DNA of 31,001 nucleotides from NCBI GenBank assembly GCA_036557885.1, contig DATBGS010000114.1, forward strand, positions 1 to 31,001. The letters are read 5' to 3'. This DNA is from Ktedonobacterales bacterium. GTDB taxonomy: Bacteria; Chloroflexota; Ktedonobacteria; Ktedonobacterales; DATBGS01. This document shows, in pieces, positions 3,853-27,100 of this stretch. The notes beneath the pieces are model-generated. The model had not been told where the DNA came from. It ran no database searches and worked only from the letters and a program-made list of their open reading frames with translations. Position numbers and translations under genes: made by a program. Positions within the stretch are counted from its first letter, which is position 1. Each line of letters starts with the position of its first letter.

Positions 3853-4079
3853 CGTCTGCCTTTCACGAGAACCTGAAGCATTACCTATGCCGCTCTCAAG
3901 GACGTGCTGGCAGAGTGGAATGTAACAACATGGCTGGGAATGCCTGCGTGCAAAAACATGGCAACACACTGCACAGCCACACGCTGCACATAGGAGCGAG
4001 GCCGGAAAGCCTATTCATTAAGCCTTCCAGCCTCGCTGTTGTGAGGAGGGAACAGGGCGAAAAAGTTCTGCGTGGCCTC

Positions 4080-4606: not shown

Positions 4607-6202
4607 TCAGGAGGCGCGTGAACTCACCGCGCTCCCGCTCCCCTGTTGCTCATCTGGCGGTGTCAATTGACGGGGCAAGGCGAACGCAAACGTGACCCCA
4701 GCCTCTTGCTCATGACGCTCTGCCCAGATGCGCCCTCCGTGCAATTGAAGAATAGCCTGGGCATGATACAGGCTGACCCCAATTCCATCAACGTGCTGCG
4801 CGCCCGGCGAGATTGGCTGATGAAAACGCTCAAAAAGGTGCTCAATCTGTTCAGAAGGTATCCCCTCACCTTGATCGCTCACGGTAACAAGATATTCCTC
4901 GTCACGCGCCAGCAGACTCACCTCCACCACACCGCCTTCTGGCGAATATTTCATGGCATTCTCCAGCAGATTCCCAAGAATCGAGCGCAGTCGCTCCCGA
5001 TCAGCACACAGCATCGTCTTCTCTGCCATATGACACAGTGTGATCTCGTGCTGCTCAGCGGAAAGCTGAACTGATCGAACCGTTTGCTCGATGAGTTCGG
5101 CCAGATCAAAACAGTGAAGCTGCACCCGAAGTTTGCCCCGCTGCAACATAGAAACATCCAGCAGCGTATTTACCAGACGTTCAAGATGTTCTGCCTCACT
5201 CTGAATAATCTCCAAAGAGCGCTGCTCGTACTTGATAGAAGAGATCTGCTTTGCCTGCTCATCGCTGCCCTGGCTGCCAATCTCTGCCAGTTTCCGCTCA
5301 GTCCTCCGCAGCAAATGCTGGGTAAAACCCTTGATCGGCGTCAAGGGCGTGCGCAACTCGTGCGAAACGGTGGAGAGAAATTGATCTTTCCATTGCTCAA
5401 TTTGCTGACGTTCTGTGTGTACCTCTTCCCAAAGACGCTGCTGCGCCTGCATCAGGTGCGCATGCTCTAACGCCGCCGCCGCCGCATCCAATAAAACCGC
5501 CAGTAACTCTGCCTGCTCTGCTGGCGCCTTCTCAGCATGCTCGCCAGCTATCCCAAGCACGCCAGCACACGTTCCATAACGCGCAAGCGGATGGACAAGC
5601 AAGAACTCCAGATGCTCAGCCGAGGCAGGCAACAAATGGCTCTGCCGCTTCTCCAGAACATCAACCACCTGGCTTTGGATGAGAGATGCGCGTTCCACTG
5701 GCGGGAGGCCATGCAGCATGCCCTCATGCTCTAAACGTTTGATAGTTTCTTCTAAAAAGCGCTCGCTTAAAGCATACTGGGCAGCGGCATAGAATTCGTA
5801 CTGTCCCGCTTCTTCACGCAGCAATACAGAGCAAGCGGTAAAGTGATGAATTCGTTTCAAGCTGCTCAAGAGCGCTTGCAGCACCTCTTGAGGCCTGGTC
5901 GCCGCTGCAAACGCCTGAACAGTTTCGCGGATCAAGCGCACCTGTTCAGGCGCCGAAAGCGTCTGTGTATAGCTGGAAGGGGCAAGCAAGGTTGCCTGAT
6001 CACGGGTGGGCTGGGGATGGGTGTTGCGCGCCGGATGAAAAGGTGGCGGTGGCACAGGGGCCAGGGGAGGAAACATCGGCAGCAAAGCAGAGGCTTCTGG
6101 CTCTGATTGAGAGCAATCAAGTGAGTGAGATAGAGCATCGAGATTCTGCACAAAACGTCTCCTCAAAGCTATTGCGAGTGTTGCCGCTCCGCCTGCTCGC
6201 AA
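4607..6202 (-). CDS. sensor histidine kinase with N-terminal GAF-like sensory region (HisKA + HATPase_c)
   Basis: H-box FLSTVSHELRTPLTPIKGF. ATPase motifs LGNLLENAMKYSP (N-box), DQGEGIP (G1) and GIGVSLY (G2). The sensory domain is ~250 aa. The track start at 6202 is TTG; the first ATG is at 6076 (MFPPLAPVPPPP...), so the true start is uncertain. No cognate response regulator is adjacent. Confidence 0.85.
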   Translation of the reverse strand: MRAGGAATLAIALRRRFVQNLDALSHSLDCSQSEPEASALLPMFPPLAPVPPPPFHPARNTHPQPTRDQATLLAPSSYTQTLSAPEQVRLIRETVQAFAAATRPQEVLQALLSSLKRIHHFTACSVLLREEAGQYEFYAAAQYALSERFLEETIKRLEHEGMLHGLPPVERASLIQSQVVDVLEKRQSHLLPASAEHLEFLLVHPLARYGTCAGVLGIAGEHAEKAPAEQAELLAVLLDAAAAALEHAHLMQAQQRLWEEVHTERQQIEQWKDQFLSTVSHELRTPLTPIKGFTQHLLRRTERKLAEIGSQGSDEQAKQISSIKYEQRSLEIIQSEAEHLERLVNTLLDVSMLQRGKLRVQLHCFDLAELIEQTVRSVQLSAEQHEITLCHMAEKTMLCADRERLRSILGNLLENAMKYSPEGGVVEVSLLARDEEYLVTVSDQGEGIPSEQIEHLFERFHQPISPGAQHVDGIGVSLYHAQAILQLHGGRIWAERHEQEAGVTFAFALPRQLTPPDEQQGSGSAVSSRAS

Positions 6203-6346
6203 ACTCTGTGCCAGAATCGCCCCCCGTCTCTTTCAATTCCCCTGCCGCTTGATACTGACCCATCTGGCGCTCTTCGTTTCGGTACTTTTTTCCCAATTCC
6301 TCTTGAAGACGACTTGCGAGACTAGACGTTGCAATGAACAAGACCT

Positions 6347-6352
6347 TATAAT
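6347..6352 (+). promoter_or_regulatory. possible -10 element (TATAAT) upstream of ftsH
   Basis: A perfect TATAAT sits ~160 nt upstream of the ftsH ATG. The only nearby -35-like hexamer (TTGCAA) is at 12-nt spacing, so the assignment is weak. Confidence 0.2.
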
Positions 6353-6512
6353 GGGCGCGAGAGAAAACCTCTCACCCACCAAGGGTTCAACTGTCACCAC
6401 GCACTGCGTCCCCTTCTAGCTACAGCGTATTAGCGTCCTATTTCATTGCAAAGCCACTCACCTCTATGCGAGAGTCGGTTGTTGTTGGGAAGAAGAAGGA
6501 TCTCACAAGCGC

Positions 6513-8426
6513 ATGAAGAGATATACCAGATCACCAAAGAACGAACCTATGAAACCGCCAAAATCGCCCAAGACCCACAAACCCTCTGACCCAGACCCCA
6601 GGCGCCCGCTGCGTGTACCGCTGCGCCTTGGCATCCCCATTATCTTGCTCATTGTGCTTGGCATGGGGGCACTTTTCTGGGTAGCTTCCAACAGCGACGA
6701 CAGCGACGCCTATAAACAGGTTCCCATTACCCAGATTTTGACGCTGGCCGATAATCATCAGGTGCTACAGGCCACTATCACTGGGGACCAGCTCCAGGTG
6801 ACGACAAAAGACCATCAAAAGCTGACTGCGACCAAGGAATCGCAGGATTCTGTCACAGACCGCCTGGCAAAAGACGGAGTACAAGTGACGGTTGCCCCAG
6901 CCACTGATAACCTCAGTCGCTGGTCGCAGATTGCCATCAATGTCATCTTGCTGTTGCTGATTCTGGGCTTCATCGTTGTCCTGATTCGCCGCAATGCTGT
7001 TGGCGGCGGGCAGGCGGTACCCTTTGGTCGCAGCAAAGCAAAACGCTTTAGCGAATCGCGCCCTTCGGTGCTCTTTCAGGATGTCGCGGGCGTTCAGGAA
7101 GCCAAACAAGAGCTTGAAGAGATTGTCATGTTCCTGAAGCACCCCGAAAAATTTGTTTCGATAGGCGCGCGCATCCCCAAGGGGGTGCTGCTCGTCGGCC
7201 CTCCAGGGACCGGCAAAACACTCATTAGCCGCGCCGTCGCTGGGGAGGCTGGTGTTGCCTTTTACAGCGTCAGTGGCTCCGAGTTTGTCGAAATGTTTGT
7301 GGGCGTGGGCGCTTCTCGCGTGCGCGATCTGTTTCACACCGCCAAAGAAAACGCGCCCTGCATCATCTTTATTGACGAGATTGATGCCGTTGGGCGACAA
7401 CGCGGCGCTATGCCGACCACCGGCAACGACGAACGCGAACAAACCCTCAATCAGTTGTTGGTCGAGATGGATGGCTTCGACAAGAACACCAATGTGATCA
7501 TCATTGCCGCCACCAACCGGCCTGATGTGCTTGATCCGGCCTTGCTCCGGCCTGGGCGCTTTGACCGTACCATCACCCTGGAAAAGCCCGACATCAACGG
7601 GCGCAAGCAGATTCTGGCTGTCCACGCGCAAGACAAACCACTTGACCCAGAAGTGGACCTGGGGCGCCTGGCCCGTCAAACTGCTGGATTTTCCGGCGCA
7701 GACCTGGCGAACCTGGTAAACGAAGCCGCATTGCTGGCTGCGCGGCATGACCGTTCCTCGATCAATAACACCGATCTGGAAGAGTCTATCCTACGTGTCG
7801 TCGCGGGGCCGGAACGCAAGAGTCGTGTCATCACTGAATCAGAGAAAGCGATCATCGCTTATCATGAAGTCGGGCATGCCATCGTCATGCGCTCGCTGCC
7901 CGGCTCTGACCCGGTGCAGAAGGTTTCGGCCATTGCGCGCGGCATGGCACTGGGTATTACGGTGTCTGCGCCAGCCGAGGACCGCTATTTAATGCGCCGC
8001 TCCGAATTGCTGGCGAAGATGGCCGGGTTGATGGGGGGCCGCGCTGCCGAAGAGATTATTTTTGGCGACATCACAACTGGTGCCTCCAACGACATCGAAC
8101 GGGTCACGGGTCTTGCCCGCAAAATGGTGTGCGAGTTTGGCATGAGTCCCCTGGGCCACATCCAATTCAAATCACCTGAAGAAGGCGGCGTGCTCAGTCA
8201 AGAGACCGCCGCGCGGGTTGATACCGAAATCAGCCTCCTGGTAGATCAGGCGTATCAAACCGCCAAAGACATCCTGCTCCAGCGCAAGGACAAGTTGGTC
8301 GTCATCTCCGATCATCTGATGGAGGTCGAAACGATTGATGGCGAGGAGCTTGACCGCCTGCTCAACGACCAGGAAGAAGACAACACCCTTCAGGGACTTG
8401 CCATCAGAAGCGATGCGGTTGCCTAG
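6513..8426 (+). CDS. ftsH: ATP-dependent zinc metalloprotease FtsH
   Basis: Two N-terminal TM segments, the AAA+ Walker [10 protein letters not shown], the second region of homology, and the HEVGH zinc-binding motif (HEVGHAIV). RBS gaagaagaagga precedes the ATG. Confidence 0.95.
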
Positions 8427-8433
8427 AAATGGT

Positions 8434-8470
8434 GCGATGGGTTGCAGCAGCGCTTGTCTGGACCCATCGC
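8434..8470 (+). terminator. perfect 9-bp stem hairpin (GCGATGGGT...ACCCATCGC) directly after ftsH stop
   Basis: GCGATGGGT at 8434-8442 pairs with ACCCATCGC at 8462-8470. The loop is 19 nt and ATTTGCTTCT follows. Either a weak intrinsic terminator or a leader structure for thpR. Confidence 0.3.
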
Positions 8471-8519
8471 ATTTGCTTCTGGCAAGCACGTTTCTCCTGG
8501 TAGAGACGATGCTGAATCA

Positions 8520-9128
8520 ATGACACGCACATTTATTGCTGTTGAACTGGACGAAGAAGTCCGCGCTTACCTTGAGCACGAGCTACGCAGGCTAAGCGCG
8601 CTCTTGCCCCAGGTGCGCTGGGTAGACCCGGCCACTTTACATCTGACGCTGGCCTTTCTGGGCGAGCTAGACGATCAAAGGCTGGCCCAGGCGACTGAAG
8701 CCGCTTTGGAGACGGCACGCCAGGGCAAGCCGTTTACGCTGCGATTGTCCTCGCTTGGCACATTTGGGCCACGCTACCAGCCACGAGTCGTCTGGGTTGG
8801 TATTGCAGGGAACCTCCCGCGCCTCCTGGAACTCCAGGCAGCACTGGTTGCCTCCCTGACCAGCCGAGCTTTTCCTCCCGAAGAACGTGCCTACAGCCCA
8901 CACCTCACCCTGGCACGTCTGAAAGACCCACTCAGCAAGCCAGACCTTGCCACCTTGCAACGGATTCTCGCTTCATCTCAGTCTGCGCAAACTGCCTCCA
9001 GCCACGCATCATCCTCACCCAAAAGCACGCCTCCCGCTCTCCCAGTTGCCCAGATCAGCGTAATGAAGAGCGAATCATTTCCCGGTGGTCCACACTACAC
9101 CTGCTTACAGAGTTGCCCACTCGGTTGA
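8520..9128 (+). CDS. thpR: RNA 2',3'-cyclic phosphodiesterase / 2'-5' RNA ligase (2H phosphoesterase, ThpR/LigT)
   Basis: Two H-x-T-x motifs characteristic of the 2H family (HLTLAFLG and HLTLARLK). The start was re-assigned to the in-frame ATG at 8520 (MTRTFIAVELDEE), since the track start at 8442 adds 26 non-conserved residues. Confidence 0.85.
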   Translation: MTRTFIAVELDEEVRAYLEHELRRLSALLPQVRWVDPATLHLTLAFLGELDDQRLAQATEAALETARQGKPFTLRLSSLGTFGPRYQPRVVWVGIAGNLPRLLELQAALVASLTSRAFPPEERAYSPHLTLARLKDPLSKPDLATLQRILASSQSAQTASSHASSSPKSTPPALPVAQISVMKSESFPGGPHYTCLQSCPLG

Positions 9129-9165
9129 CAGATAGCTCCAGACACACCTCAAACGCAAGGCAGGC

Positions 9166-9194
9166 TTGACACTCCACCTCCTACCTGATAGCAT
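9166..9194 (+). promoter_or_regulatory. putative promoter (TTGACA, 17 nt spacer, TAGCAT) for the DUF2877 gene
   Basis: A consensus -35 TTGACA at 9166-9171 with a -10-like TAGCAT at 9189-9194, ~35 nt upstream of ATG 9229. Confidence 0.3.
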
Positions 9195-9228
9195 AAGCAA
9201 GGAAAGGCTGGAAAGATCAAGAGGGCAG

Positions 9229-10212
9229 ATGCACCTTCCTATGCGCATACTCCACGCACGTTCCTACAGCACGGCAATACACCCTCTGATAGCAGGACCG
9301 TTGCTCCAGGGAACTGTCCAGAGCATCTTCTCGCGTGCTGCCAACCTTCAGTTTGATCGTCGCCTGGTCACACTTCACGCTCACCTGACGCCTTGTGCCC
9401 CCAATGGCATCACCCTCTCTGTTGAGGCCACCAACTCTCTCCTTCTTGATCTTCAGGCTGGCATGTCCGTGACGATTGAACACGAAACCCTCTCTTTCCC
9501 TGCCATATCTGCCTGCCTGAGCCTTCAAGGAAGCCAACCCTGGAACCCTCGCCCAGTTATTTCTTACGCAGCAGATATGGCGGGCCTGCTAGAACGCAGC
9601 CTGGCGTTCCTTCTTCCCTTGCTGATGAACACAGGCCAATCAGATCCATCAGCAGGCCTGGCCCAACTCGCCCTACTCGCAGATTGCCCCGCTTCGAGCA
9701 TGCCCCCTCATGCCTCGCCGCTTCTGCAAAAAGCCTGGAGCAGCAGTCGCCAACTCATACAAGCCATCGGCCAGCAGCAAATCACAAGAGCAGCCCGCGC
9801 CGCTGAAACATTGATTGGCCTCGGTCCTGGGTTGACCCCTTCTGGAGATGACCTTCTGACTGGCTTAATTGCTACGACCATCCTGCTCAGCGAAGCGCTG
9901 GCCTTGCCCGGCGACTTCTACCGACAATTCGGCAGCGCCGTTCTGGCACTGGCTAAAGACAAAACAACGCACTTGAGCTTACATTGGATAGAATATGCCA
10001 CGCGCGGCGCGGTTTCTGAACCGCTGGGGCGGCTCCTGCAAGCCCTGGTAGTCTCTGATCAGCCACAACAACTGGAGGCAAGAGCCAATGAGGTGCTCTC
10101 TACTGGAGCTACCTCTGGCGGGGATTTGTTGGCAGGCGTCATGCTCGGCAGCCATTGCCTGCTCACACAGCACAAACGAGAGGGGTATACGCATGGCCTT
10201 CACAGTCAGTGA
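9229..10212 (+). CDS. DUF2877-family protein (YlbF/AllH-like subunit of FdrA-DUF1116-DUF2877 complexes)
   Basis: Track ORF 9166..10212 begins with TTG; ATG 9229 is preceded by RBS aagagggcag. It contains the DUF2877-like region GLGPGLTPSGDDLLTGLIAT and co-occurs with fdrA and a DUF1116 gene. Confidence 0.65.
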   Translation: MHLPMRILHARSYSTAIHPLIAGPLLQGTVQSIFSRAANLQFDRRLVTLHAHLTPCAPNGITLSVEATNSLLLDLQAGMSVTIEHETLSFPAISACLSLQGSQPWNPRPVISYAADMAGLLERSLAFLLPLLMNTGQSDPSAGLAQLALLADCPASSMPPHASPLLQKAWSSSRQLIQAIGQQQITRAARAAETLIGLGPGLTPSGDDLLTGLIATTILLSEALALPGDFYRQFGSAVLALAKDKTTHLSLHWIEYATRGAVSEPLGRLLQALVVSDQPQQLEARANEVLSTGATSGGDLLAGVMLGSHCLLTQHKREGYTHGLHSQ

Positions 10213-11887
10213 CGCCCTCAAAATTGGGCCACTCAGTCGTGCCCGTGTCCTGGCTGGCATGGAAGGACTCCAGCGCCCTTTGTCCTATGTCAATGTCATG
10301 GAGGTTCCCGACATCTTAAAATGGGTTCGGTCTGATGAATTACTGCTGACGACCTTGTATCCAATGCGCGACATGACCATCTCGCCACGCGAACTGGTCC
10401 GCGAACTCTCGCGCCGTAATCTGGCTGGTATCGCCGTCAAGATCGGGCGCTATGTTGATACCGTTCCCGACGAAATGATTGAAGCCGCCCAGAGCGAGCG
10501 GCTTCCCCTGCTGGAGCTTCAGCCCGACATCTCCTTTAACGATGTTATCAATTCCCTGCTTGGTGAAATCTTAAACGCGCAGGCGCGCACGCTTCAGCTT
10601 TCACAAGAGATTCACCAGCGTTTCACCGAAATTGTCCTGGCCGGGGGCGGCCTGAATGAGATAGCCGAAAACCTGGCGATCCTGGTCCACAGCCCCATCG
10701 TCATCATCGCCCCAGACCGCCGGGTGCTTGCATCTTCCGAGCCGAGTAATTCAGATGGTTTGCTATCGCGGCTCATCACCCAAAAAGGCGAGCGTCAGCA
10801 TTTGGAAAGCAGCGAACTGGCCGAGAACGGCAGAGTCACCAAAACGGCCACAACCACGCGGCGCATCTTGCGCGTGGGCGCAGAGAGTATAAACTGCGCA
10901 GTCCGACCTATTCGCGTTGGCGCAACCCTCTATGGCTCCATCATTGTCATTCTGCGCGAGCAGGAACCGGATGCCGGTATCAGCATGGCAATTGACCATG
11001 CCGCCACCGTTGCCGCGCTCGACATCATGAAGCAGCAGGCGGTCTTGAATGTCGAGCGGCGCTTCCAGGCCGATTTCCTGGATGATCTGCTCTCTGGGCG
11101 ACTCCACTCACGCGAAGCCATCTTTACCCGCGCCAGCGCGCTTGCCTGGAATCTCGATCAGCCCGCCCTGGTGCTGGTCATTGAGGTTCAACGGACAGGG
11201 AACGATTCACCCCAGCGCTGGCGCAATCATGCCTCCTACCGACGCGATGGAATGCGCCTGATAGATGTTGCTGGGGCCTCACTGCTCAAATATGATCGCA
11301 GCGCCATTCTCTGGGAACGCTCAGATAGCCTTGTCGCAGTGCTCACCGAGCCTTGTGCCCCGCATCAACCCCAATCTGCTCACCTAGCCAGCATGCAAAT
11401 CGCTCAACAGGTCGGCCAGGAGTTACGCGCGCTTGGTGGCGATGCCTGTGCCAGCATCGGCGTGGGGCGGCCCTGCAATGACCCGCTCAAGCTCTACATC
11501 AGCTACGAAGAGGCGCGGCAGGCGCTGATCATTGGCACAAAAGTCTGGGGCCAGGGAGCAATCACCCACTTTGAAGACCTGGGCGTCTATCGCATCTTGC
11601 ATCATCACCACGATAAAGCCGAACTGGATGCTTTTGCCGAGGAAATGCTCGGCAAGCTAATTGAATACGACAGAAAGCGCAATACCGACCTCGTGGAGAC
11701 GCTGGATGTCCTGATGGACTGCAACCTCAACATCTCTGTTGCTGCGCGGCGACTGTATCTTCATTACAACAGCCTGCGCTATCGCCTGCAAAAAATTGAG
11801 GAGTTGATCGGCCCATTTGTAGATGACGCGCAACAGCGCTTTAACCTCCAGTTCGCCCTGCGCATCCGCAAAGCACGCAAGCTCTAA
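10193..11887 (+). CDS. PucR-family transcriptional regulator (purine catabolism regulator-like)
   Basis: Start at ATG 10193 (MAFTVSDALKIGPL..., typical PucR N-terminal PurC-like domain) with RBS gagagggg. The C-terminal PucR HTH is NISVAARRLYLHYNSLRYRLQKIEELIG. It overlaps the upstream gene by 20 nt. Confidence 0.85.
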   Translation: MAFTVSDALKIGPLSRARVLAGMEGLQRPLSYVNVMEVPDILKWVRSDELLLTTLYPMRDMTISPRELVRELSRRNLAGIAVKIGRYVDTVPDEMIEAAQSERLPLLELQPDISFNDVINSLLGEILNAQARTLQLSQEIHQRFTEIVLAGGGLNEIAENLAILVHSPIVIIAPDRRVLASSEPSNSDGLLSRLITQKGERQHLESSELAENGRVTKTATTTRRILRVGAESINCAVRPIRVGATLYGSIIVILREQEPDAGISMAIDHAATVAALDIMKQQAVLNVERRFQADFLDDLLSGRLHSREAIFTRASALAWNLDQPALVLVIEVQRTGNDSPQRWRNHASYRRDGMRLIDVAGASLLKYDRSAILWERSDSLVAVLTEPCAPHQPQSAHLASMQIAQQVGQELRALGGDACASIGVGRPCNDPLKLYISYEEARQALIIGTKVWGQGAITHFEDLGVYRILHHHHDKAELDAFAEEMLGKLIEYDRKRNTDLVETLDVLMDCNLNISVAARRLYLHYNSLRYRLQKIEELIGPFVDDAQQRFNLQFALRIRKARKL

Positions 11888-11951
11888 CCTGGGCGCTCAA
11901 CTCAAACTTTGCAGATATGACCTGTGTAGAATTGTTTCATCACCAGGGGGT

Positions 11952-11976
11952 GCTGGCAAGCGAGGATGCTGGCAAG
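11952..11976. promoter_or_regulatory. tandem direct repeat GCTGGCAAG x2 (16-nt periodicity) in the pucR-fdrA intergenic region
   Basis: GCTGGCAAG at 11952-11960 and again at 11968-11976, ~150 nt upstream of fdrA. A candidate regulator-binding site. Confidence 0.3.
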
Positions 11977-12121
11977 AATCGCAAATCCTGGGGAGTCCTT
12001 TCGTGAGAATTCGCTGTAGACATCACTCCTCTTCTTTGGTAGAAAAGAGAAGGAGAAGAAGTAAAGAACAAAAGCCCTCTGACCAGCTCGCATACCCACA
12101 CAAGGCACGTAAAGGGCAGCC

Positions 12122-13702
12122 ATGATTACAAAAACGCTCGTTCGTCGCAACCTATATGCTGATTCAGTCGCCTTAATGCAGCTCTCTCGCGCGCTGACGG
12201 CGCTCCCAGAGGTGGAAGACGCCGCTGCCGTCATGTCCACCGCAGCCAACCGGGAACTACTCCAGCAGGCGGGGCTGTTGGGGGCAGATGCTGATCCTGG
12301 GGAATTTGGCGGGCCTAATGATCTACTCATCATTATCCGCGCCGCCACCGACGCAGCCATCGAAGCGGCACTGCTGGCGGCTGAACAAGGTCTAAGCCAT
12401 CGAGCAGGTGGAGAGACAGGAACAGTCGCGCAGCAACGCCCGCGCTCACTGGAGCAAGCAGCACGTCAGCAGCCCGCGCTCAATCTCGCGCTGATCTCGG
12501 TGCCAGGCGCGTATGCCGCCGTTGAGGCTCATCAGGCGCTGCTGGCTGGTCTACACGTCCTGCTCTTTAGCGATAATGTCTCGCTGGAGCAAGAAGTTGC
12601 CTTGAAAATGCTGGCCGCCGAACGCGGTTTGCTGCTCATGGGTCCAGATTGCGGTACCGCCATTATCAACGGCATTGGCCTGGGGTTCGCCAACGCCGTC
12701 CCGCGTGGCTCCATCGGGATTGCCAGCGCCTCTGGCACCGGATTACAGCAAGTTTCCTGTCTCATCGCCCATGCCGGACTGGGCATTTCCCAGGCCATCG
12801 GAACGGGTGGGCGCGACCTCTCTCAAGCCGTTGGAGGCCGCACGATGCTCGCTGGGCTGGACCTCCTCCAACAAGACCCGGAAACCAGCGTGATCATACT
12901 GCTTTCCAAGCCACCCGCGCCAGAGATCGCCCAGCGCGTCCTGGAACGGGCAGCGCAAGGCAGCAAACCAACGGTGGTCGCCTTTCTGGGGAGCCATCTG
13001 GACAGGAGCGTAGGGCCTTCCGCTGCCCATCTCCATCTCGCCAACACCCTCAGCAGCGCCGCTCGTCTTGCGGTGCAACTTGCAGGCGGGAGGGTGGTTT
13101 TGGAAAACGAATCGCTCACTGAGGAAATTCGCGCAGCAGCGCAAGCGGCCAAAGCAGCGCTCAGTCCAGAGCAACGCTACGTGCGCGGCCTCTTTTCGGG
13201 CGGCACCTTATGCGATGAAGCCATGCTGGTGCTGAGCCAGCGGCTTGGCCCAATTGCCTCCAACATCCCTCTGCGTCCCGAATGGGCGCTCACCAACCCC
13301 AACCAGAGCCAGGGCCACACCGCCATTGATCTTGGCAGCGATGAATTCACCGTAGGCCGCCCACACCCGATGATTGACGCCGGGCTACGCCTGCGCCGCC
13401 TGGCCCAGGAAGCACGCGACCCAACCACTGCCGTTCTTCTGCTGGACATCGTGCTTGGCTACGGCGCGCATCCCGACCCAGCCGCCGAGATTGCACCGGC
13501 CATACAAGAGGCCAGAAAAGAGGCCGCGCAAGCAGGCCGCAACCTGGCTTGCATCGTATCGCTGTGTGGCACTGAACAAGACCCACAGAGTTTAAGCAGG
13601 CAGCGCGAAGAGTTACAACGGGCTGGCGCGCTGGTCTTCACCGAAAACGCGCTGGCGGCCCAGGTCGCCGCAGAAAGTGCGCCAGCCAAGCGGAGCCAGT
13701 AA
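12122..13702 (+). CDS. fdrA: FdrA-family protein (acyl-CoA synthetase/succinyl-CoA synthetase-alpha-like; AllF-like)
   Basis: The N-terminus MITKTLVRRNLYADSVALMQLSRAL resembles the E. coli FdrA N-terminus. CoA-binding/ligase-like glycine-rich segments are present (GPDCGTAIINGIGLGFAN, GIASASGTGLQ). Confidence 0.8.
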   Translation: MITKTLVRRNLYADSVALMQLSRALTALPEVEDAAAVMSTAANRELLQQAGLLGADADPGEFGGPNDLLIIIRAATDAAIEAALLAAEQGLSHRAGGETGTVAQQRPRSLEQAARQQPALNLALISVPGAYAAVEAHQALLAGLHVLLFSDNVSLEQEVALKMLAAERGLLLMGPDCGTAIINGIGLGFANAVPRGSIGIASASGTGLQQVSCLIAHAGLGISQAIGTGGRDLSQAVGGRTMLAGLDLLQQDPETSVIILLSKPPAPEIAQRVLERAAQGSKPTVVAFLGSHLDRSVGPSAAHLHLANTLSSAARLAVQLAGGRVVLENESLTEEIRAAAQAAKAALSPEQRYVRGLFSGGTLCDEAMLVLSQRLGPIASNIPLRPEWALTNPNQSQGHTAIDLGSDEFTVGRPHPMIDAGLRLRRLAQEARDPTTAVLLLDIVLGYGAHPDPAAEIAPAIQEARKEAAQAGRNLACIVSLCGTEQDPQSLSRQREELQRAGALVFTENALAAQVAAESAPAKRSQ

Positions 13703-13747
13703 CAAGCAGGGCTGGTAAAAAGAGCAAAGCAGCAAGGAGAATATCTT

Positions 13748-15157
13748 ATGGCAGAAAGGGGCTTTCTTGGCAGCCGATTAGAGGTGGTCAACGTTGGGGT
13801 TGATCTGTTTGCCGACGCGCTGACCGCGCAGGGACTGGAGCCGGTTCGGGTCGAATGGCAACCGCCCGCCCAGGGCATGGGCACTGAACTCTGGGCCACG
13901 CTGAGCGACCCGCGCATAGATGCCGCCAATGAACGCGCCGTCCAGCGCATGTTGTCAGCACGGCCAAAGCTGGTGGATGTTTGCCCGGCCAGCGAGGTTG
14001 TCCCAGGCATGTCGCGCCAGACCATCTTGCATGCTGGCCCACCGATCACCTGGGAGCACATGTGCGGGCCGCTGCGTGGGGCGGTGATTGGCGCCCTGTT
14101 GTACGAAGGACTTGCTCAAAATGAAGTAGAGGCAGTTGCGCGTATTGAACGCGGCGAAATTGACTTCTCGTCCTGCCATCATCATCAGGCGGTTGGCCCA
14201 ATGGCTGGCGTAATGTCCTCCTCCATGCCTGTCTACATCCTTGAGGATGAGGTACATGGTCGTCAGTCCTTTTCCACCTTAAACGAAGGGCTGGGAAAAG
14301 TCCTGCGCTATGGTGCCAACAGCCCGGAAGTCTTGCAGCGCCTGCGCTGGATGCGCGATGTGCTCGGCCCGGCCCTGGGGCGGGCCATTCGCAAGGCCGG
14401 TGGCCTGGATGTCAAGCCCTTGACTGCCCAGGCGCTTCAGATGGGCGACGAATGCCATAACCGCAACCGCGCTGCCAGTGCCATTCTCATCCGCGCCCTC
14501 GCGCCATTCCTGGTAGAAACCAGCCAATCGCCCGAAGAGACGGCCAGTGTCCTCCGCTTCATGGCTGGCAATGAGCATTTTTACTTGAATATCTCGATGG
14601 CTTGCTGCAAAGCCTCAGCCGATGCTGCCGCCGGAGAACCATTCAGCAGCCTCGTTACCGCAATGGCCCGCAACGGCACCGAGTTTGGCGTGCGCGTCAG
14701 CGGACTGGGCGAGCGCTGGTACACCGGCCCGGCCCAAAACGTGCGCGGCCTCTATTTTAGCGGCTTCAGCGATGCCGATGCCAACCCCGATATTGGCGAT
14801 AGCACAATCTCTGAAACGGTGGGCATTGGGGGATTTTCAATGGCTGCCGCCCCAGCCATTGCGCAGTTTATTGGTGGTACTCCGGCTGATGCCTTGCGCG
14901 CCACCCTGGAGATGTACGACATCACCCTGGCCGAAGACAGCGCGATGGCCCTGCCGCCTCTTGATTTTCGTGGGGCACCCACCGGCATAGACCTGCGCAA
15001 AGTCGTGCACCTGAACCGCTTGCCTGTTATTAACACTGGCATTGCGCATCGCCTGCCAGGAGTGGGACAGGTTGGTGCCGGGCTGGTCGAACCCCCTCTG
15101 GCGTGCTTCACCCAGTCACTTGTAGACCTGGCAGCGCTGGTACAAAAAAATCCTTAG
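13748..15157 (+). CDS. DUF1116-family protein (YlbE/AllG-like)
   Basis: 469-aa ORF with RBS aaggagaatatctt before the ATG. Its size and position immediately after fdrA match ylbE. Family assignment rests on recall of DUF1116 features and gene context. Confidence 0.7.
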   Translation: MAERGFLGSRLEVVNVGVDLFADALTAQGLEPVRVEWQPPAQGMGTELWATLSDPRIDAANERAVQRMLSARPKLVDVCPASEVVPGMSRQTILHAGPPITWEHMCGPLRGAVIGALLYEGLAQNEVEAVARIERGEIDFSSCHHHQAVGPMAGVMSSSMPVYILEDEVHGRQSFSTLNEGLGKVLRYGANSPEVLQRLRWMRDVLGPALGRAIRKAGGLDVKPLTAQALQMGDECHNRNRAASAILIRALAPFLVETSQSPEETASVLRFMAGNEHFYLNISMACCKASADAAAGEPFSSLVTAMARNGTEFGVRVSGLGERWYTGPAQNVRGLYFSGFSDADANPDIGDSTISETVGIGGFSMAAAPAIAQFIGGTPADALRATLEMYDITLAEDSAMALPPLDFRGAPTGIDLRKVVHLNRLPVINTGIAHRLPGVGQVGAGLVEPPLACFTQSLVDLAALVQKNP

Positions 15158-15213
15158 CCAGCCTTAGCTAACCGGTTGTCTTGTACCAGTGGGGTAAAGG
15201 CTTGTTGACGCTT

Positions 15214-17076
15214 TTAACGCGCTTGCGGTGGAGGCGGTGAGGATGCATCAGATGAAAAAGTCTGGGGAGCAGACGCCTGCCGCTCCAGGCTAGTAAGATG
15301 CTTTCGCAAATTACGCGCAGCCGCAGTTGCATCAAATTCTGCCTGATCGCTCAGCACCTGATCAGCCGCTACCCCCTCAAACTGCGCAATAATACGCCTG
15401 ATCGTTGAGCTATCCGTAATTTGCTGCTGCACAATATCGTTATAAAACTGTTCAAGCTGGCGCAGGCTGAGCAGCGGAGGAGCCGGGTTCGCTCCTGAAA
15501 ACCTCACACCCATCCCGCTGGGAGGAACGAGCGACAAACTCTTTCCCGTCCCTTGCTCTGAAAAGAGCGAGGTCCGCTCTTCTGGCGCATTCGCCTGCCT
15601 GCCATCCGTATAGGAGGTCGCCATTCCAGCGACATGCGTAATCATGGGCGGGGGTGCGATGAGATGGGGAAGCGCCTGTCCGCTCCCTTCAACAACCCGA
15701 CCAACTCCTGTCTGGTCAGCAGGGAGCAGGAGCGTGGGGTGAGGCCCCTCTGCTGAAGAAACTATACGGGTGGTCAGCGAAGCCGGACGCCCTCCTGCCT
15801 GCGAGCGCGGGCCATCAACGAGATGCACCCTGACTGTCTGGATTTCAACTCCTCGCCCAGCTACCCGTGCATGCAACGCATTCCTCACCTGGTTATCCAG
15901 GTCCGAAAGCGACATATCCATTGCGCCCGTATCCAGGGTGTGGGAAAGCGATGGGCCAACCTGAACCCCCGCTGATGCAGCGATAAAATCATCAGCGGTC
16001 AGCCTGCTGATGACCTCTTCCACCGCTCTCGCCAGGCTCTGCTGAATCGGCGTATTCCAATTCTTTGTGTTGCGTATTGCCAGGTACTCCTGACCAGGAA
16101 TGACCTCATACAGCACCGACACGCGCAGCTTCACCTGCTCACCAGAGCGCAAACGAAGAAGCACCAGGGGGATTTCATACCGCTTTGGGCCGGTGTCAAC
16201 ATACCCCAGCACACGCTCACCTGGAGAGCGCAGATTAAAACCGGCATGCAGCGCCCGCGTGGGCTTTCCAAATCGTCCCATGACCGCAGCCGTTCCAGCC
16301 TTGACCACACAGGAGTATCTGCGCAGCAGCAGGCATCCCACGAGCAGCAGCAAAATGGTCAAAAAAAAGGCAAACGAAGTTGAGAAAAGGACAAAGCAGA
16401 TCGTTGCCAGAAATGCGATGATCCCCCCGGCAACTGCCAGAACCCACGCCGTATCATTGGCATTCGCATCAGCGTAATAAAGCGCGCCAGACTGGAGAAT
16501 CCCAATGGCGGTAAAGATAAGGAACATTGGACCAATGGCTTGTGGAGGGAGGCGCGTTCCCCCATCCAGGCTCGCAAAAGACACCCAGATAAACGAGAGC
16601 AGCACCAGCACCGTTGGGAGAAACCAGCGCGAATGGCGACGGATATTTGCCCAATTATTTAAGCGTTCTGCTGAGAAATTGCCGGATGGAGTGCTCTCCG
16701 GCAAAAAGTGTGTCTGCGCAGAAAGCGAGCGACGTTGAGAAAGATTTCTCCCTGTCCGAGACACCTCTGGAGCAGCGAATTGAGGGAAAGTATCCTCATC
16801 AGGAGGCAGCGAAGCCGAATAAGAGAGGGCATTCCGTCGCGCCCGGAGCGAGGAAGGGGTAGGAGGCGGTGAAGATACTGGTGGAAAGGCATCCGCTTCT
16901 TGAGCAGGCGAAGAACTTCGAGGCTCATCCATCGCTGAGGGCATCAGGGGCGTAGCTATTCCCTGCCCGCCACGAACGGAGCGCCACAAGTCGCGCAACT
17001 CCTCTGCCGTCACATGCAAATCTTCTTGCTCATACTCATCGTCAGAGTCTTTGTCAGCGTTGGAGTTATCTGGCAC
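15214..17076 (-). CDS. SPFH/Band-7 domain membrane protein with long disordered N- and C-terminal regions
   Basis: GTG start at 17076 with a strong RBS CCAGGAGGGAAGCC. The order is an acidic N-tail, four hydrophobic helices, an SPFH-like core (VVKAGTAAVMGRFGKPTRALHAGFNLRSPGERVLGYVDTGP...VKLRVSVLYEVI), and a long Pro/Ser/Ala-rich C-terminus. Confidence 0.65.
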   Translation of the reverse strand: MPDNSNADKDSDDEYEQEDLHVTAEELRDLWRSVRGGQGIATPLMPSAMDEPRSSSPAQEADAFPPVSSPPPTPSSLRARRNALSYSASLPPDEDTFPQFAAPEVSRTGRNLSQRRSLSAQTHFLPESTPSGNFSAERLNNWANIRRHSRWFLPTVLVLLSFIWVSFASLDGGTRLPPQAIGPMFLIFTAIGILQSGALYYADANANDTAWVLAVAGGIIAFLATICFVLFSTSFAFFLTILLLLVGCLLLRRYSCVVKAGTAAVMGRFGKPTRALHAGFNLRSPGERVLGYVDTGPKRYEIPLVLLRLRSGEQVKLRVSVLYEVIPGQEYLAIRNTKNWNTPIQQSLARAVEEVISRLTADDFIAASAGVQVGPSLSHTLDTGAMDMSLSDLDNQVRNALHARVAGRGVEIQTVRVHLVDGPRSQAGGRPASLTTRIVSSAEGPHPTLLLPADQTGVGRVVEGSGQALPHLIAPPPMITHVAGMATSYTDGRQANAPEERTSLFSEQGTGKSLSLVPPSGMGVRFSGANPAPPLLSLRQLEQFYNDIVQQQITDSSTIRRIIAQFEGVAADQVLSDQAEFDATAAARNLRKHLTSLERQASAPQTFSSDASSPPPPQAR

Positions 17077-17174
17077 GGCTTCCCTCCTGGAAGACGGCTT
17101 GAAGCGAAAGCTCCCGCTCCCGGTTTCCTACAACAATCCTCCGTCTACAAAAAATTTGTTTCGATGGGCTGATC

Positions 17175-18092
17175 TTAATTCAACACGTCATCCCCATTTG
17201 CAGGAACCAGACCACCTTTTCCCTCTTCATCCCCGCTTCGCTTTGTTTTGCAGCAGTTCCCACTCCCCACGCTGCATCCAACGCCACCAGAGCGCTTTGG
17301 CGCCTCCAGTTCATTCACCGGCACCTGAACTGTTGCCCCACTCTCCAGCATCACCTCAACCGTTCGTTTCAACACATTGACCCCAACCACTTTGCCCATG
17401 CCGCTCGCGCTGTTCACAAAAGCCCCGATCACTGGCATACCCTGCTTGGCCTCCAGGTACTGATCGTTCTCATAGGAGAGACAGCACATCAGCCGCCCAC
17501 AGACTCCTGAAATCTTGGCAGGGTTCAAGGGCAACCCTTGCTCCTTTGCCATCTTAATCGAAACCACTCCAAATTCGGTCAGCCAGGAACTACAACAGAG
17601 CGTCTTCCCACAGGGGCCAACGCCTCCCAGCATCTTTGCCTGGTCACGCGCGCCAATCTGACGCAGTTCGATGCGCGTGCGAAACTGCGCGGCCAGGTCA
17701 CGCACCAGCGCCCGGAAATCCACCCGTTCTTCTGACGTAAAATAGAACGTCAGGCGGCTGCCATCATAGGTATATTCAGCTTCCACTAGTTTCATCGGCA
17801 GCTTGTGGAACTCCACGCGCTGGGCGCAGCGCGTCAAGGCGTTTTTTTCTTTACTTTTAAAAGCCAGCAACTGGCGCAGGTCATCCTCAGTTGCCAGCCG
17901 CAAAATGGGCTTGAGCGTCTCCGCGATCTCTGACGCGGCGATCTGCTTGGGCGCGATCACCACCCGCCCGGCCTCAATACCACGCGCCGTCTCCACAATC
18001 ACAAAGTTCCCGGTGGAGAGGTCTTTTCCCGCCGGATCAAAGTGATAAATGCGGCCAGCCGGTCGGAAACGAATACCGACAACCATTGGCAT
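17175..18092 (-). CDS. ricT: PSP1-domain protein RicT/YaaT (regulatory iron-sulfur complex subunit)
   Basis: PSP1 C-terminal domain with conserved Cys cluster (GPCGKTLCCSSWLTEF, CGRLMCCLSYE). ATG at 18092 with RBS AGAGGAGCGGCACGT. Confidence 0.85.
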   Translation of the reverse strand: MPMVVGIRFRPAGRIYHFDPAGKDLSTGNFVIVETARGIEAGRVVIAPKQIAASEIAETLKPILRLATEDDLRQLLAFKSKEKNALTRCAQRVEFHKLPMKLVEAEYTYDGSRLTFYFTSEERVDFRALVRDLAAQFRTRIELRQIGARDQAKMLGGVGPCGKTLCCSSWLTEFGVVSIKMAKEQGLPLNPAKISGVCGRLMCCLSYENDQYLEAKQGMPVIGAFVNSASGMGKVVGVNVLKRTVEVMLESGATVQVPVNELEAPKRSGGVGCSVGSGNCCKTKRSGDEEGKGGLVPANGDDVLN

Positions 18093-25693: not shown

Positions 25694-27100
25694 CTATACC
25701 CGCAAACGCGAAGGCAAAATCCGCAGGGATTCACGATATTTTGCCACCGTGCGACGCGCCACAACCAACCCGCGCTCAGCCAACTCAGCAGCCAGTTCTT
25801 CATCGCTCAGCGGATGCCTGGGGTCTTCGCTTGCAATCAATTCGCGCAGGGTATCTTTTGCGCGTAGCGAACCATCAAAAAACTCATCAAAGGGAATGGT
25901 TCGCCCTTCGGGAAGCAGCACAAACTTATTGGCTGTTGCCCGGCTAATCGTAGACTCGTGCAGCCCCACCTTTTGCGCCAATTCCCCGCGCGTGAGCGGG
26001 ACCAAATAGCGCACGCCCTTTTCCAGAAACTCACATTGATACTCCACCAGCGCATCGGAAATCTTCTTCAGCGTCTCCCAGCGTTGATGAATACAATCAA
26101 TAAAAAACTGCGCGCGTGACGTGTAATGGCGAATATGCTGGCGTTCTTCCTCGCTGCTCTGCTGGCGGTCCAGATGCTTTGCCAGATGGTTATAGGTGGG
26201 ATTCAGCCGGAACAGGTATTTCTTATTCTCGACTACCTCCGCCTCAAAGCCCGTTTCCACCCGGCGTATAACGACATCTGGGCGCACCAGCGTGGTGTGC
26301 GCGCGAGCGCCTGCACCGGCGCTTGCAGACGCATCATAAACGTGCGCAGGGAAAGGCGTCAGGTTTGTGCGGATAAATTGCCATGCCTGGCGCACATGCG
26401 AGCCAGGCGCGTGCACCTCCCGCGCAATCTCCGCAAAGCGATGCTCGCCAAGCTGGTTCAAATACTTGTCAACCAATTTCTCAGCCAGCGGCTGTGGGCT
26501 GCCCAGCTCTCGAAACCAGCGCAGTTGAATCAGCAGGCATTCGCGCAGATCGCGTGCCCCAATCCCAACTGGCTCCTGCATCTGCAAAATGTCCAGAACA
26601 TGCAGCACCTGTTCGAGAGCCACCCGCAATGTCCAGGCAGCCTCCTCAACCGAAACCTGCAAATACCCGTGACTATCCAGATTCCAGATCAAATACTCAG
26701 CAATGGGGAAATCGTCGGGGGAAACCATCGTGCGCATATGGGAAAGCAGCGACTCCTCCAAAGACTCCAGCGATTCTACACGCGCCAGCGGATCATAGTC
26801 ATCTTCTTCGCTACTCGACACCCCCGGCTCGTTGTAATCCTCCCATTCAGGGGTGTTCTCCGCCCTGCTGCCAGCCGTCGTACCACAGTTCGGACAGATT
26901 CCATCCTTCATCTGCGTCCCACAGCACTGGCACTGGCTCACTTCTTCCATCTCAAATGCCGGGTTATCTCGCACCTCCACAGCAGCCAATTGCTCCAATT
27001 CCTCAGCAGAAAGCTGCAAAATCTTAATCGAGGCTATCAACTTTGCAGAAATATTTAGTGAGGTCTGTGGTACGATTGACGGGTCTTGCTTTAAAAACAT
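25694..27100 (-). CDS. rpoN: RNA polymerase sigma-54 factor
   Basis: N-terminal region I, Leu/Gln-rich (LIASIKILQLSAEELEQLAA). C-terminal RpoN box ARRTVAKYRESLRI. ATG 27100 has RBS GAGAAGGAAGACGCAG. There is an unusual CxxC...CxxC insert (CQCCGTQMKDGICPNCG) in region II. Confidence 0.9.
   Translation of the reverse strand: MFLKQDPSIVPQTSLNISAKLIASIKILQLSAEELEQLAAVEVRDNPAFEMEEVSQCQCCGTQMKDGICPNCGTTAGSRAENTPEWEDYNEPGVSSSEEDDYDPLARVESLESLEESLLSHMRTMVSPDDFPIAEYLIWNLDSHGYLQVSVEEAAWTLRVALEQVLHVLDILQMQEPVGIGARDLRECLLIQLRWFRELGSPQPLAEKLVDKYLNQLGEHRFAEIAREVHAPGSHVRQAWQFIRTNLTPFPAHVYDASASAGAGARAHTTLVRPDVVIRRVETGFEAEVVENKKYLFRLNPTYNHLAKHLDRQQSSEEERQHIRHYTSRAQFFIDCIHQRWETLKKISDALVEYQCEFLEKGVRYLVPLTRGELAQKVGLHESTISRATANKFVLLPEGRTIPFDEFFDGSLRAKDTLRELIASEDPRHPLSDEELAAELAERGLVVARRTVAKYRESLRILPSRLRV

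Follow-up and report, generated by a model that had tools for sequence, protein, structure and literature searches.

A PucR-linked allH-pucR-allF-allG cluster of Ktedonobacterales as a lineage-typical variant of a widespread module for putative N-acyl-urea phosphorolysis

The 31,001-nucleotide (nt) stretch of DNA analysed here, below called the window, is an entire contig deposited as 'MAG TPA: Ktedonobacterales bacterium' (MAG, metagenome-assembled genome), and its sequence recurs in several JGI and Logan assemblies. It carries four genes in the order allH-pucR-allF-allG, three of which belong to the families of the oxamate carbamoyltransferase subunits of Escherichia coli and the fourth encodes a regulator of the PucR family. 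As judged from sequence comparison and gene order, this cluster belongs as a variant to a PucR-AllH-AllF-AllG module that is widespread, and it should not be seen as an E. coli operon with rearranged genes; H-PucR-F-G is the normal, lineage-typical arrangement of Ktedonobacteria. In our opinion, it is fairly probable that the cluster is a PucR-controlled N-acyl-urea phosphorylase unit, the carbamoyl phosphate from which would be consumed in trans. The function of AllFGH was assigned in 2024 and in E. coli only, where the purified AllF-AllG-AllH interconverts oxalurate plus inorganic phosphate and carbamoyl phosphate plus oxamate (PMC11326118). The genes of the cluster and the sites considered below are the following.

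9166 to 9194, plus strand: candidate sigma-70-type promoter for allH-pucR (TTGACA, 17 nt, TAGCAT, TG extension; 10 of 12 consensus positions)
9229 to 10212, plus strand: allH, DUF2877 / YlbF family, 327 amino acids (aa); Pfam PF11392, E = 4e-22, 79 bits against a cut-off of 25
10193 to 11887, plus strand: pucR-family regulator, 564 aa; PucR, GGDEF_2 and HTH_30 domains
11948 to 11976, plus strand: direct repeat GG[GA]TGCTGGCAAG, two copies with 16-nt spacing
11968 to 12004, plus strand: bipartite footprint GCTGGCAAGA-N20-CTTTCGT upstream of allF, a candidate PucR site or activator-dependent promoter
12122 to 13702, plus strand: allF, FdrA family, a relative of succinyl-CoA synthetase alpha, 526 aa; NCBIfam PRK06091, 491 bits against a cut-off of 433
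13748 to 15157, plus strand: allG, DUF1116 / YlbE family, 469 aa; PF06545, E = 1e-96
15214 to 17076, minus strand: convergent SPFH/Band_7 gene; PF01145

The families and coordinates given for the four genes in an earlier note, which had read the sequence alone, were all confirmed by Pfam and NCBIfam profiles, and the same is true of the convergent SPFH gene said there to end the locus; this gene is the boundary of the cluster and functionally outside it. The domains of the regulator were found with E-values of 2.6e-29 (PucR), 4.6e-17 (GGDEF_2) and 1.1e-21 (HTH_30), and those of AllF are CoA_binding and Ligase_CoA. The 20-nt overlap of allH and pucR can be read directly in the sequence, the ATG of pucR lying 20 nt before the stop codon of allH, and allG starts 45 nt past the stop codon of allF. 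Compared with the proteins of E. coli K-12 (reference locus L017), AllF is 40% identical to FdrA over 512 aa, AllG is 49% identical to YlbE, and AllH is 34% identical to YlbF in an alignment of the C-terminal 116 aa only. AllF matches the PDB entry 3dmy at 4.5e-79 and AllG the uncharacterised entry 3clq at 1.7e-129. The AlphaFold model of AllH (pLDDT, the predicted local distance difference test score, of 95.6) is ordered from residue 6, which supports the start at 9229.

The position of the cluster among its relatives was established in a survey of the loci of 10 species-representative genomes and 80 metagenomic loci with AllG relatives at 51–79% identity, all scored with custom hidden Markov models (HMMs) for AllF, AllG, AllH, AllK and PucR. 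The order F-G-H-K was found in one locus of the survey, that of E. coli. The commonest order is H-F-G(-K), with 20 loci, and PucR-H-F-G(-K) recurs in seven loci from unrelated lineages and other phyla; PucR and AllH are adjacent in L001, L043, L065, L069, L093 and L094, and in a Halanaerobiales locus they overlap by 20 nt in the order opposite to that of Ktedonobacteria. H-PucR-F-G was seen only in Ktedonobacteria. In 48 metagenomic loci the sequence extends 1.5 kb or more past allG. AllK was present in 13 of these and a PF04199 'cyclase' was the next gene in 20, with both present in 1 and neither in 16, so that 35 of the 48 have no kinase directly downstream of allG; where both flanks reach 5 kb or more, AllK is absent from the whole locus in 10 of 17. 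The layout of the E. coli operon is thus atypical, the PucR linkage and the lack of a kinase are recurrent, and only the swap of allH and pucR is lineage-specific. The cluster had been described in the earlier note as re-arranged, with a PucR gene inserted into it and with no carbamate kinase. The first of these statements holds relative to E. coli and not otherwise; by the counts given above, PucR was not inserted into an E. coli-like operon, and the lack of an adjacent kinase is the majority state. The absence of a carbamate kinase from the cluster itself was borne out by tblastn and the AllK model over the window.

Four Ktedonobacterales lineages were compared, namely those of the window, L020 (AllH 69%), L026 (AllG 79%) and L018/L019 (AllH 47%). 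All of them keep the order allH-pucR-allF-allG followed by the convergent SPFH gene, and in those with annotated flanks (the window, L018/L019 and L020) SPFH is followed by PSP1, ANTAR, CorA and LplA genes. AllH homologues at 43–72% identity form a tight group, the named members of which are labelled Ktedonobacterales; PucR orthologues are 73–88% identical in Ktedonobacterales contigs and about 29% identical over the full length to the PucR proteins of PucR-AllH-AllF-AllG loci in other phyla. The cultured Ktedonosporobacter rubrisoli (complete genome CP035758, 10.53–10.55 Mb; locus L103) has the same overlapping allH-pucR, followed by allF-allG, with identities to the window of 48% for PucR, 55% for AllF and 63% for AllG; SPFH occupies the same position in L018, L020 and L026, but not in K. 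rubrisoli. In a bootstrapped neighbour-joining tree of concatenated AllG and AllF, the group of four lineages obtained 100% support, as did a clade of 15 members that adds K. rubrisoli and metagenomic loci. Deeper splits reach at most 73% and shift with rooting, only the Chloroflexota-type clade being robust; a midpoint-rooted neighbour-joining tree of AllG set E. coli and the AtzF clade apart from the rest. The ratios of nonsynonymous to synonymous divergence (dN/dS), calculated for the window against L020 (dS about 0.7), are 0.29 for AllH, 0.11 for PucR, 0.14 for AllF and 0.07 for AllG, values by which all four genes are judged to be under purifying selection, that is, maintained and functional. 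The arrangement, then, is common in this lineage; whether it had also been described, as the earlier note asked, may be answered from the literature on these genes, in which we found the E. coli papers and one nitrifier MAG survey and no description of this arrangement. In L018 (11020–11442), two small opposite-strand open reading frames (ORFs) of 83 aa and 55 aa, the latter Arc/RHH-like, are inserted between allH and pucR; the pair is possibly a toxin-antitoxin system and breaks the overlap found elsewhere.

The regulatory sequences were compared in the window, L018, L020 and L026. The –35 element TTGAC[AG] and the extended –10 element TGnTAnnAT of the allH promoter are kept in all four, and the surrounding sequence varies. 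On the plus strand upstream of allF, no canonical sigma-70 promoter was detected, a good –35 element being absent. The tandem repeat in this region was put forward in the earlier note as a candidate operator. Its core 9-mer GCTGGCAAG stands at 11952 and 11968; two copies of it somewhere in the window were obtained in 17 of 100 shuffles and are not improbable alone, so that the weight of the repeat comes from its conservation in related loci and not from the number of copies. Of the two copies, the proximal one is invariant in the four loci, and the distal GCTGGCA copy is found 16, 30 or 50 nt upstream in three of them and is absent in L018. What is conserved instead is a bipartite footprint: neither GCTGGCAAGA nor CTTTCGT varies, their starts are separated by exactly 30 nt in every locus (11968 and 11998 in the window), and the remainder of the spacer upstream of allF is variable in the alignment of these orthologous loci. 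This footprint is, by its conservation, the best candidate for the PucR site.

A sigma-54 promoter in the TGGCA-containing repeat was considered and rejected, since the spacing from GG to GC is N11 or N8 instead of N10 and varies among orthologues; a PucR protein devoid of an AAA+ domain also disfavours it. A riboswitch or another leader RNA was sought in the 234-nt allF leader, and no Rfam match at E ≤ 1 was obtained across 8300–17300. In the divergent spacer between the cyclase gene and allH of K. rubrisoli (L103, 8789–9019), TGCCAGGT[AG]AGA occurs twice, 34 nt apart, together with an inverted repeat TTGGCA-N14-TGCCAG, the CTGGCA/TGCCAG core of which is a hexamer of the GCTGGCAAGA footprint of the window; its information content is low and the likeness may be due to chance.

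These data are consistent with the following scheme. The allH-pucR unit would be read constitutively from the conserved sigma-70-type promoter, allH and pucR being translationally coupled via the 20-nt overlap, and allF-allG would form a second, activator-dependent unit carrying the GCTGGCAAGA-N20-CTTTCGT footprint. Since PucR probably acts at this footprint, synthesis of the enzyme would be subject to a catabolite that PucR senses. The products of allH, allF and allG would assemble into a three-subunit carbamoyltransferase of the AllFGH type, in which phosphate cleaves the carbamoyl group off an N-acyl-urea (H2N-CO-NH-CO-R) with the formation of carbamoyl phosphate and the amide H2N-CO-R. In the case of E. 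coli, R is COO–, and oxalurate is converted into oxamate; for the window, oxalurate or its one-carbon-longer homologue ureidomalonate are candidate substrates. Carbamoyl phosphate could then be used in trans by the carbamate kinase of another nucleobase-catabolic cluster or by aspartate and ornithine carbamoyltransferases.

In an alignment of six sequences, the position of the catalytic His of SucD, the succinyl-CoA synthetase alpha subunit, is occupied by Tyr in AllF of the window, and E. coli FdrA has Phe there. The idea that AllF works through a phospho-histidine was rejected for this reason, and, since a phospho-enzyme relay to ADP is unlikely, a separate kinase is needed for ATP. The boundary between allF and allG has evidently been shifted between lineages: the C-terminal tail of E. 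coli FdrA (residues ~513–543) is homologous to residues 13–43 of AllG in the window (nt 13784–13876), with a local score of 51 against 22 ± 4 in 500 shuffles, so that an element of about 30 aa belongs to different subunits. Such a shift fits two proteins working in one complex.

The suggestion of the earlier note that the kinase step is encoded elsewhere obtained support from a sibling MAG and from K. rubrisoli. Directly upstream of allH, at the place occupied by LigT-FtsH in the lineage of the window, K. rubrisoli has a divergent operon that encodes a PF04199 cyclase, a three-subunit molybdenum (Mo) hydroxylase, a carbamate kinase (TIGR00746, 371 bits against a cut-off of 358) and an NCS2 permease; the large subunit of the hydroxylase passes the NCBI CoxL-like 'group 5' model with 1107 bits against 950. 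When this kinase was used as a query, carbamate kinases labelled Ktedonobacterales were retrieved. Their neighbourhoods in L104 and L107 include a fused Fe-S/Mo hydroxylase, SsnA (512 bits against 444), a YgfK-like protein, an M20 peptidase, RidA, the carbamate kinase, a carbamoyltransferase resembling ornithine carbamoyltransferase (OTCase), D-hydantoinase and a pyridoxal-phosphate lyase (PALP). Such a gene set is that of the 2,8-dioxopurine / reductive urate pathway (PMC12507026; bioRxiv 10.1101/2025.04.24.650524). The accession numbers of the L104 kinase HLV97883.1 and the L018-type AllH HLV99802.1 differ by about 1,900, and the run SRR5579871 holds members of both protein clusters; by the proximity of the accessions, the two almost certainly belong to one MAG, and it follows that a sibling genome with the kinase-less cluster encodes a kinase elsewhere. 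The kinase contig L107 and a contig with the exact AllG of the window were obtained from one JGI sample, but L107 has the NCBI accession of another MAG. Strains in which carbamate kinase is encoded away from the carbamoyltransferase gene are documented (bioRxiv 10.1101/2025.04.24.650524). As a separate observation, L104 and L107 (both 1–20993) present a near-complete homologue of a cluster of gut bacteria in soil Chloroflexota, with additional GNAT and SnoaL genes.

A number of observations weigh against a PucR-controlled N-acyl-urea phosphorylase unit of this kind, or against parts of it. The evidence for a kinase in trans comes from a sibling MAG and not from the window's own, and tblastn with E. 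coli AllK, AllA, AllB, AllC, AllD and AllE gave zero matches across the 31-kb window; a carbamate kinase was likewise not detected there with the custom AllK HMM. Pfam scans of the window ORFs found none of the PF04199 cyclase, Mo-hydroxylase and NCS2 permease, and none of these stands beside the triad in L018, L020 or L026 either, which leaves the window and its closest relatives with no local gene for making oxalurate or ureidomalonate. The identity of AllH across the lineage is only 33–47%, and it matches its E. coli counterpart over a third of its length. As to regulation, the motif of the candidate PucR site is absent upstream of allF in K. rubrisoli; the B. subtilis-type PucR box, with the consensus WWWCNTTGGTTAA, has four matches in the window at two mismatches or fewer against 5.4 expected, none of them upstream of allF. 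Finally, the biochemistry comes from the E. coli complex only, and it is from sequence that we infer the reaction, substrate, operator and regulatory logic.

The substrate divides the explanations that deserve attention. It is quite plausible, if somewhat short of an even chance, that the triad retains the strict E. coli-type function, being an oxalurate-specific oxamate carbamoyltransferase that finishes allantoin and ureidoglycolate catabolism, with PucR sensing a purine catabolite and with AllB (allantoinase), AllC, AllE, AllD and the kinase encoded elsewhere in a large genome. Oxalurate is the substrate of the sole characterised member (PMC11326118), to which AllF and AllG are related at the identities of 40% and 49% already mentioned, the regulator family is named for purine catabolism, and genes for purine degradation and for a carbamate kinase occur in sibling genomes. 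The first of two groups of AllF-AllG loci (Burkholderiales and similar) points in the same direction. Its members stand beside genes of allophanate hydrolase and a BiuH/TrtA-like isochorismatase, with AllK nearly always present, and this AtzF/BiuH-linked layout matches the description in the nitrifier MAG survey; AllG of the window is 57% identical to these AllFGK loci, which are read in the literature as oxalurate degraders. However, the adjacency of AllK, near-universal in them and in the E. coli loci, is missing here. Homologues of allB, allC, allD and allE were found neither in the window nor within the 20 kb around each of four related loci, those of L018, L020 and L103 being Pfam-annotated; the purine cluster of the siblings is of the 2,8-dioxopurine type, for which formation of oxalurate is not described; and K. 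rubrisoli, the nearest module-bearing relative, pairs its genes with a RutG/uracil-type permease and a PF04199 hydrolase, not with allantoin genes.

The second, larger group of loci, with Mo-hydroxylase, NCS2 permease, often PucR-AllH, and a PF04199 hydrolase directly after allG, leads to another substrate. Several of them have genes of a Na+-pumping malonate decarboxylase (OAD-beta, malonate decarboxylase alpha, carboxyltransferase, MdcG), and others an acyl-CoA decarboxylase with a CoA-transferase or thiolase. A tentative but credible possibility is that the triad phosphorolyses ureidomalonate (N-carbamoyl-malonamate) as one step of an oxidative route for uracil/thymine, the partner genes of which were relocated in the lineage of the window; uracil would be converted into barbiturate by the Mo-hydroxylase, then into ureidomalonate by the PF04199 protein as a ring-opening hydrolase, into carbamoyl phosphate and malonamate by AllFGH, and further into malonate. 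Such a route would account for the Mo-hydroxylase, NCS2 permease and malonate-decarboxylase or acyl-CoA decarboxylase genes of the related AllH/F/G loci and for the cyclase directly after allG in 20 of 48. Each of the nine module-linked permeases examined obtains its highest score with the uracil-permease model, two of them above its curated cut-off, and their scores with the xanthine-permease model are all far below that level; for the permease of K. rubrisoli the best model is RutG, with 621 bits against 196 for the xanthine permease. AllF and AllG of the window are orthologous to those of module-bearing genomes (the 15-taxon clade), the overlapping allH-pucR is common to K. rubrisoli, whose AllF and AllG group with the window at 100% bootstrap, and its cyclase is 44–72% identical to those of other modules. 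Ureidomalonate is oxalurate with one additional CH2, and the same chemistry would apply. The basis of this proposal is gene context, and no paper proposing the route was found in the literature on barbiturate and ureidomalonate or on FdrA with xanthine dehydrogenase and cyclase. Every partner gene is missing locally in the lineage of the window; the Mo-hydroxylases fall into two subfamilies, CoxL-like and XdhA-like, and the modules may not share one substrate; and the deep branches of the AllG/AllF tree are weakly supported (at most 73%). The residues that discriminate kinase/AtzF-linked from cyclase-linked AllG and AllF, 10 conservative columns in total, give a mixed result for E. coli (5 versus 3); they track phylogeny, not substrate, and were rejected as an indicator of the latter. 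The earlier note had considered a substrate other than oxamate; a substrate other than oxalurate is a live possibility, as judged from the gene context of related loci.

A role outside nucleobase catabolism, for example together with the housekeeping neighbours FtsH, LigT, SPFH and PSP1, or an anabolic variant in which carbamoylation runs in reverse, is very improbable. These flanks and their synteny are kept in four lineages, an FtsH-like gene also stands beside the orphan AllF-AllG pair of L027, and in the sister clade AllF-AllG pairs are found in unrelated contexts free of AllH and kinase. Yet the adjacency of FtsH is lost in L018, where the gene is inverted and about 7 kb away, and in K. 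rubrisoli, and both the dedicated PucR and the K. rubrisoli module favour inducible catabolism; the Michaelis constant of the E. coli enzyme for oxamate, 37 mM (PMC11326118), speaks against synthesis. Scarcely credible is a decaying remnant, that is, half of a once-bidirectional locus left after the loss of a cyclase/Mo-hydroxylase/kinase/permease operon. It is true that the divergent operon of K. rubrisoli sits where the window has LigT-FtsH. The four ORFs are intact, however, with dN/dS of 0.07–0.29 versus L020 at dS of about 0.7, by which a pseudogene remnant was rejected, and the cluster, promoter and footprint are kept in four lineages despite AllH identity down to 47%.

The recurrent module itself deserves mention. 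A Mo-hydroxylase with FAD, FeS and Mo subunits, a uracil-type NCS2 permease, PucR, AllH, AllF, AllG, the PF04199 'cyclase' and decarboxylase genes are found together in L065 (1–21350) and also in L001, L010, L039, L043, L064, L068, L069, L080, L083, L093 and L094, and no published description of this combination was found. Its composition suggests an energy-conserving oxidative uracil/thymine pathway via barbiturate and ureidomalonate. A wider generalisation, that AllFGH proteins are a family of N-acyl-urea phosphorylases of which the Ktedonobacteria triad and the cyclase-linked loci act on ureidomalonate, with PucR as a sensor of pyrimidine catabolites, ATP formed via carbamate kinase and Na+-pumping decarboxylation of malonate in anaerobes, is doubtful and is offered as a speculation.

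Comparison with known systems helps to place the putative phosphorylase unit. With allFGHK of E. coli (fdrA-ylbE-ylbF-ybcF; Kim & Kim 2024, PMC11326118, and 2022, PMC9843812), which encodes oxamic transcarbamylase and a catabolic carbamate kinase, it shares the three protein families, the adjacency and order of allF and allG, and the presumed phosphorolysis of an N-carbamoyl amide to carbamoyl phosphate. In contrast to E. coli, allH comes first and not third, pucR stands between allH and allF, allK and nearby allB, allC, allD and allE are lacking, the FdrA C-terminal segment of about 30 aa is at the N-terminus of AllG, and the host is an aerobic-type soil member of Chloroflexota, not an enteric facultative anaerobe; regulation is by AllS/ArcA in E. 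coli (PMC12535856) and presumably by PucR in the window. The locus of K. rubrisoli, annotated but with no study of it found, is alike in the identical gene order, the overlapping allH-pucR and membership in the same clade of 100% bootstrap, and differs in its divergent operon with cyclase, Mo-hydroxylase, kinase and RutG-like permease, replaced by LigT and FtsH in the window, and in the allF footprint, which is not common to both. The regulator has the PucR_N, GGDEF_2 and HTH_30 composition of B. subtilis PucR and of the PucR/CdaR family and, like B. subtilis PucR, is encoded beside catabolic genes for nitrogen heterocycles, but it matches the NCBIfam models AdeR, PmfR and CdaR weakly, all far below their cut-offs. 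YgeW and YqeA of the 2,8-dioxopurine / reductive urate pathway (PMC12507026, bioRxiv 10.1101/2025.04.24.650524) similarly convert a ureido group into carbamoyl phosphate, from which ATP is formed by carbamate kinase; YgeW, however, belongs to the fold family of OTCase and aspartate carbamoyltransferase and acts on 2,3-diureidopropionate, whereas AllFGH, with three subunits and no sequence relationship to it, acts on acyl-ureas. AllF resembles succinyl-CoA synthetase alpha and ATP-citrate lyase in its CoA_binding and Ligase_CoA domains, both reaction types also generating an acyl phosphate by phosphate attack on an activated acyl group, and differs in the Tyr at the position of the catalytic His of SucD and in having no ATP-grasp partner.

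The locus and its relatives make the E. coli operon an atypical representative of the family. Many environmental AllF-AllG pairs are accompanied by PucR, and a large share of them by genes of a uracil-type permease, a Mo-hydroxylase, a PF04199 hydrolase and malonate decarboxylase. Pfam and NCBI pass the label 'oxamate carbamoyltransferase subunit' to every homologue, and as a family-wide name it may be too narrow in the light of such gene contexts. If ureidomalonate is the substrate, a gene-level account of energy-conserving pyrimidine degradation and a corrected family annotation would result; if it is oxalurate, the locus is an ordinary lineage-typical variant of a known operon. Ktedonobacteria are abundant soil Chloroflexota with few studied pathways, for which the locus offers a compact system of a regulator, a candidate operator and an enzyme, and K. 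rubrisoli is a cultured organism with the full module.

The other ORFs of the window are, according to Pfam scans, housekeeping or unrelated. They include those of a GAF histidine kinase, FtsH, LigT, PSP1, an ANTAR regulator, CorA, LplA, an M55 peptidase, IMPDH, RpoN, RNase III, an AIR-synthase-related (PurM-superfamily) protein and a DUF1611 protein, three of which are located as follows.

6513 to 8426: FtsH, just upstream of the cluster
8442 to 9128: LigT, between FtsH and allH
25694 to 27100: RpoN

FtsH is just upstream of the cluster in L020 as well, and the FtsH-like AAA/M41 gene of L027 lies at 5440–7398. The name fdrA was given to a suppressor of dominant-negative ftsH; the adjacency of FtsH to AllF-AllG is probably a coincidence. 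An 845-aa ORF on the minus strand (1432–3969) has no Pfam or NCBIfam match, and a 754-aa gene of L020, also devoid of Pfam hits, is similarly placed.

Two further loci show the components of the complex in other combinations. A Thermogemmatispora MAG (L021, 8124–10669) has a lone AllH/DUF2877 gene, with no AllF or AllG on its 11.7-kb contig, co-directional with a 170-aa ORF of unknown nature and then PRPP synthetase, from which it follows that DUF2877 proteins may have roles outside the AllFGH complex. The metagenomic contig L088 (9195–20480) carries two AllG genes and one AllF, arranged as H-G-K and then a second G and F, and hints at paralogous AllFG sets within one genome.

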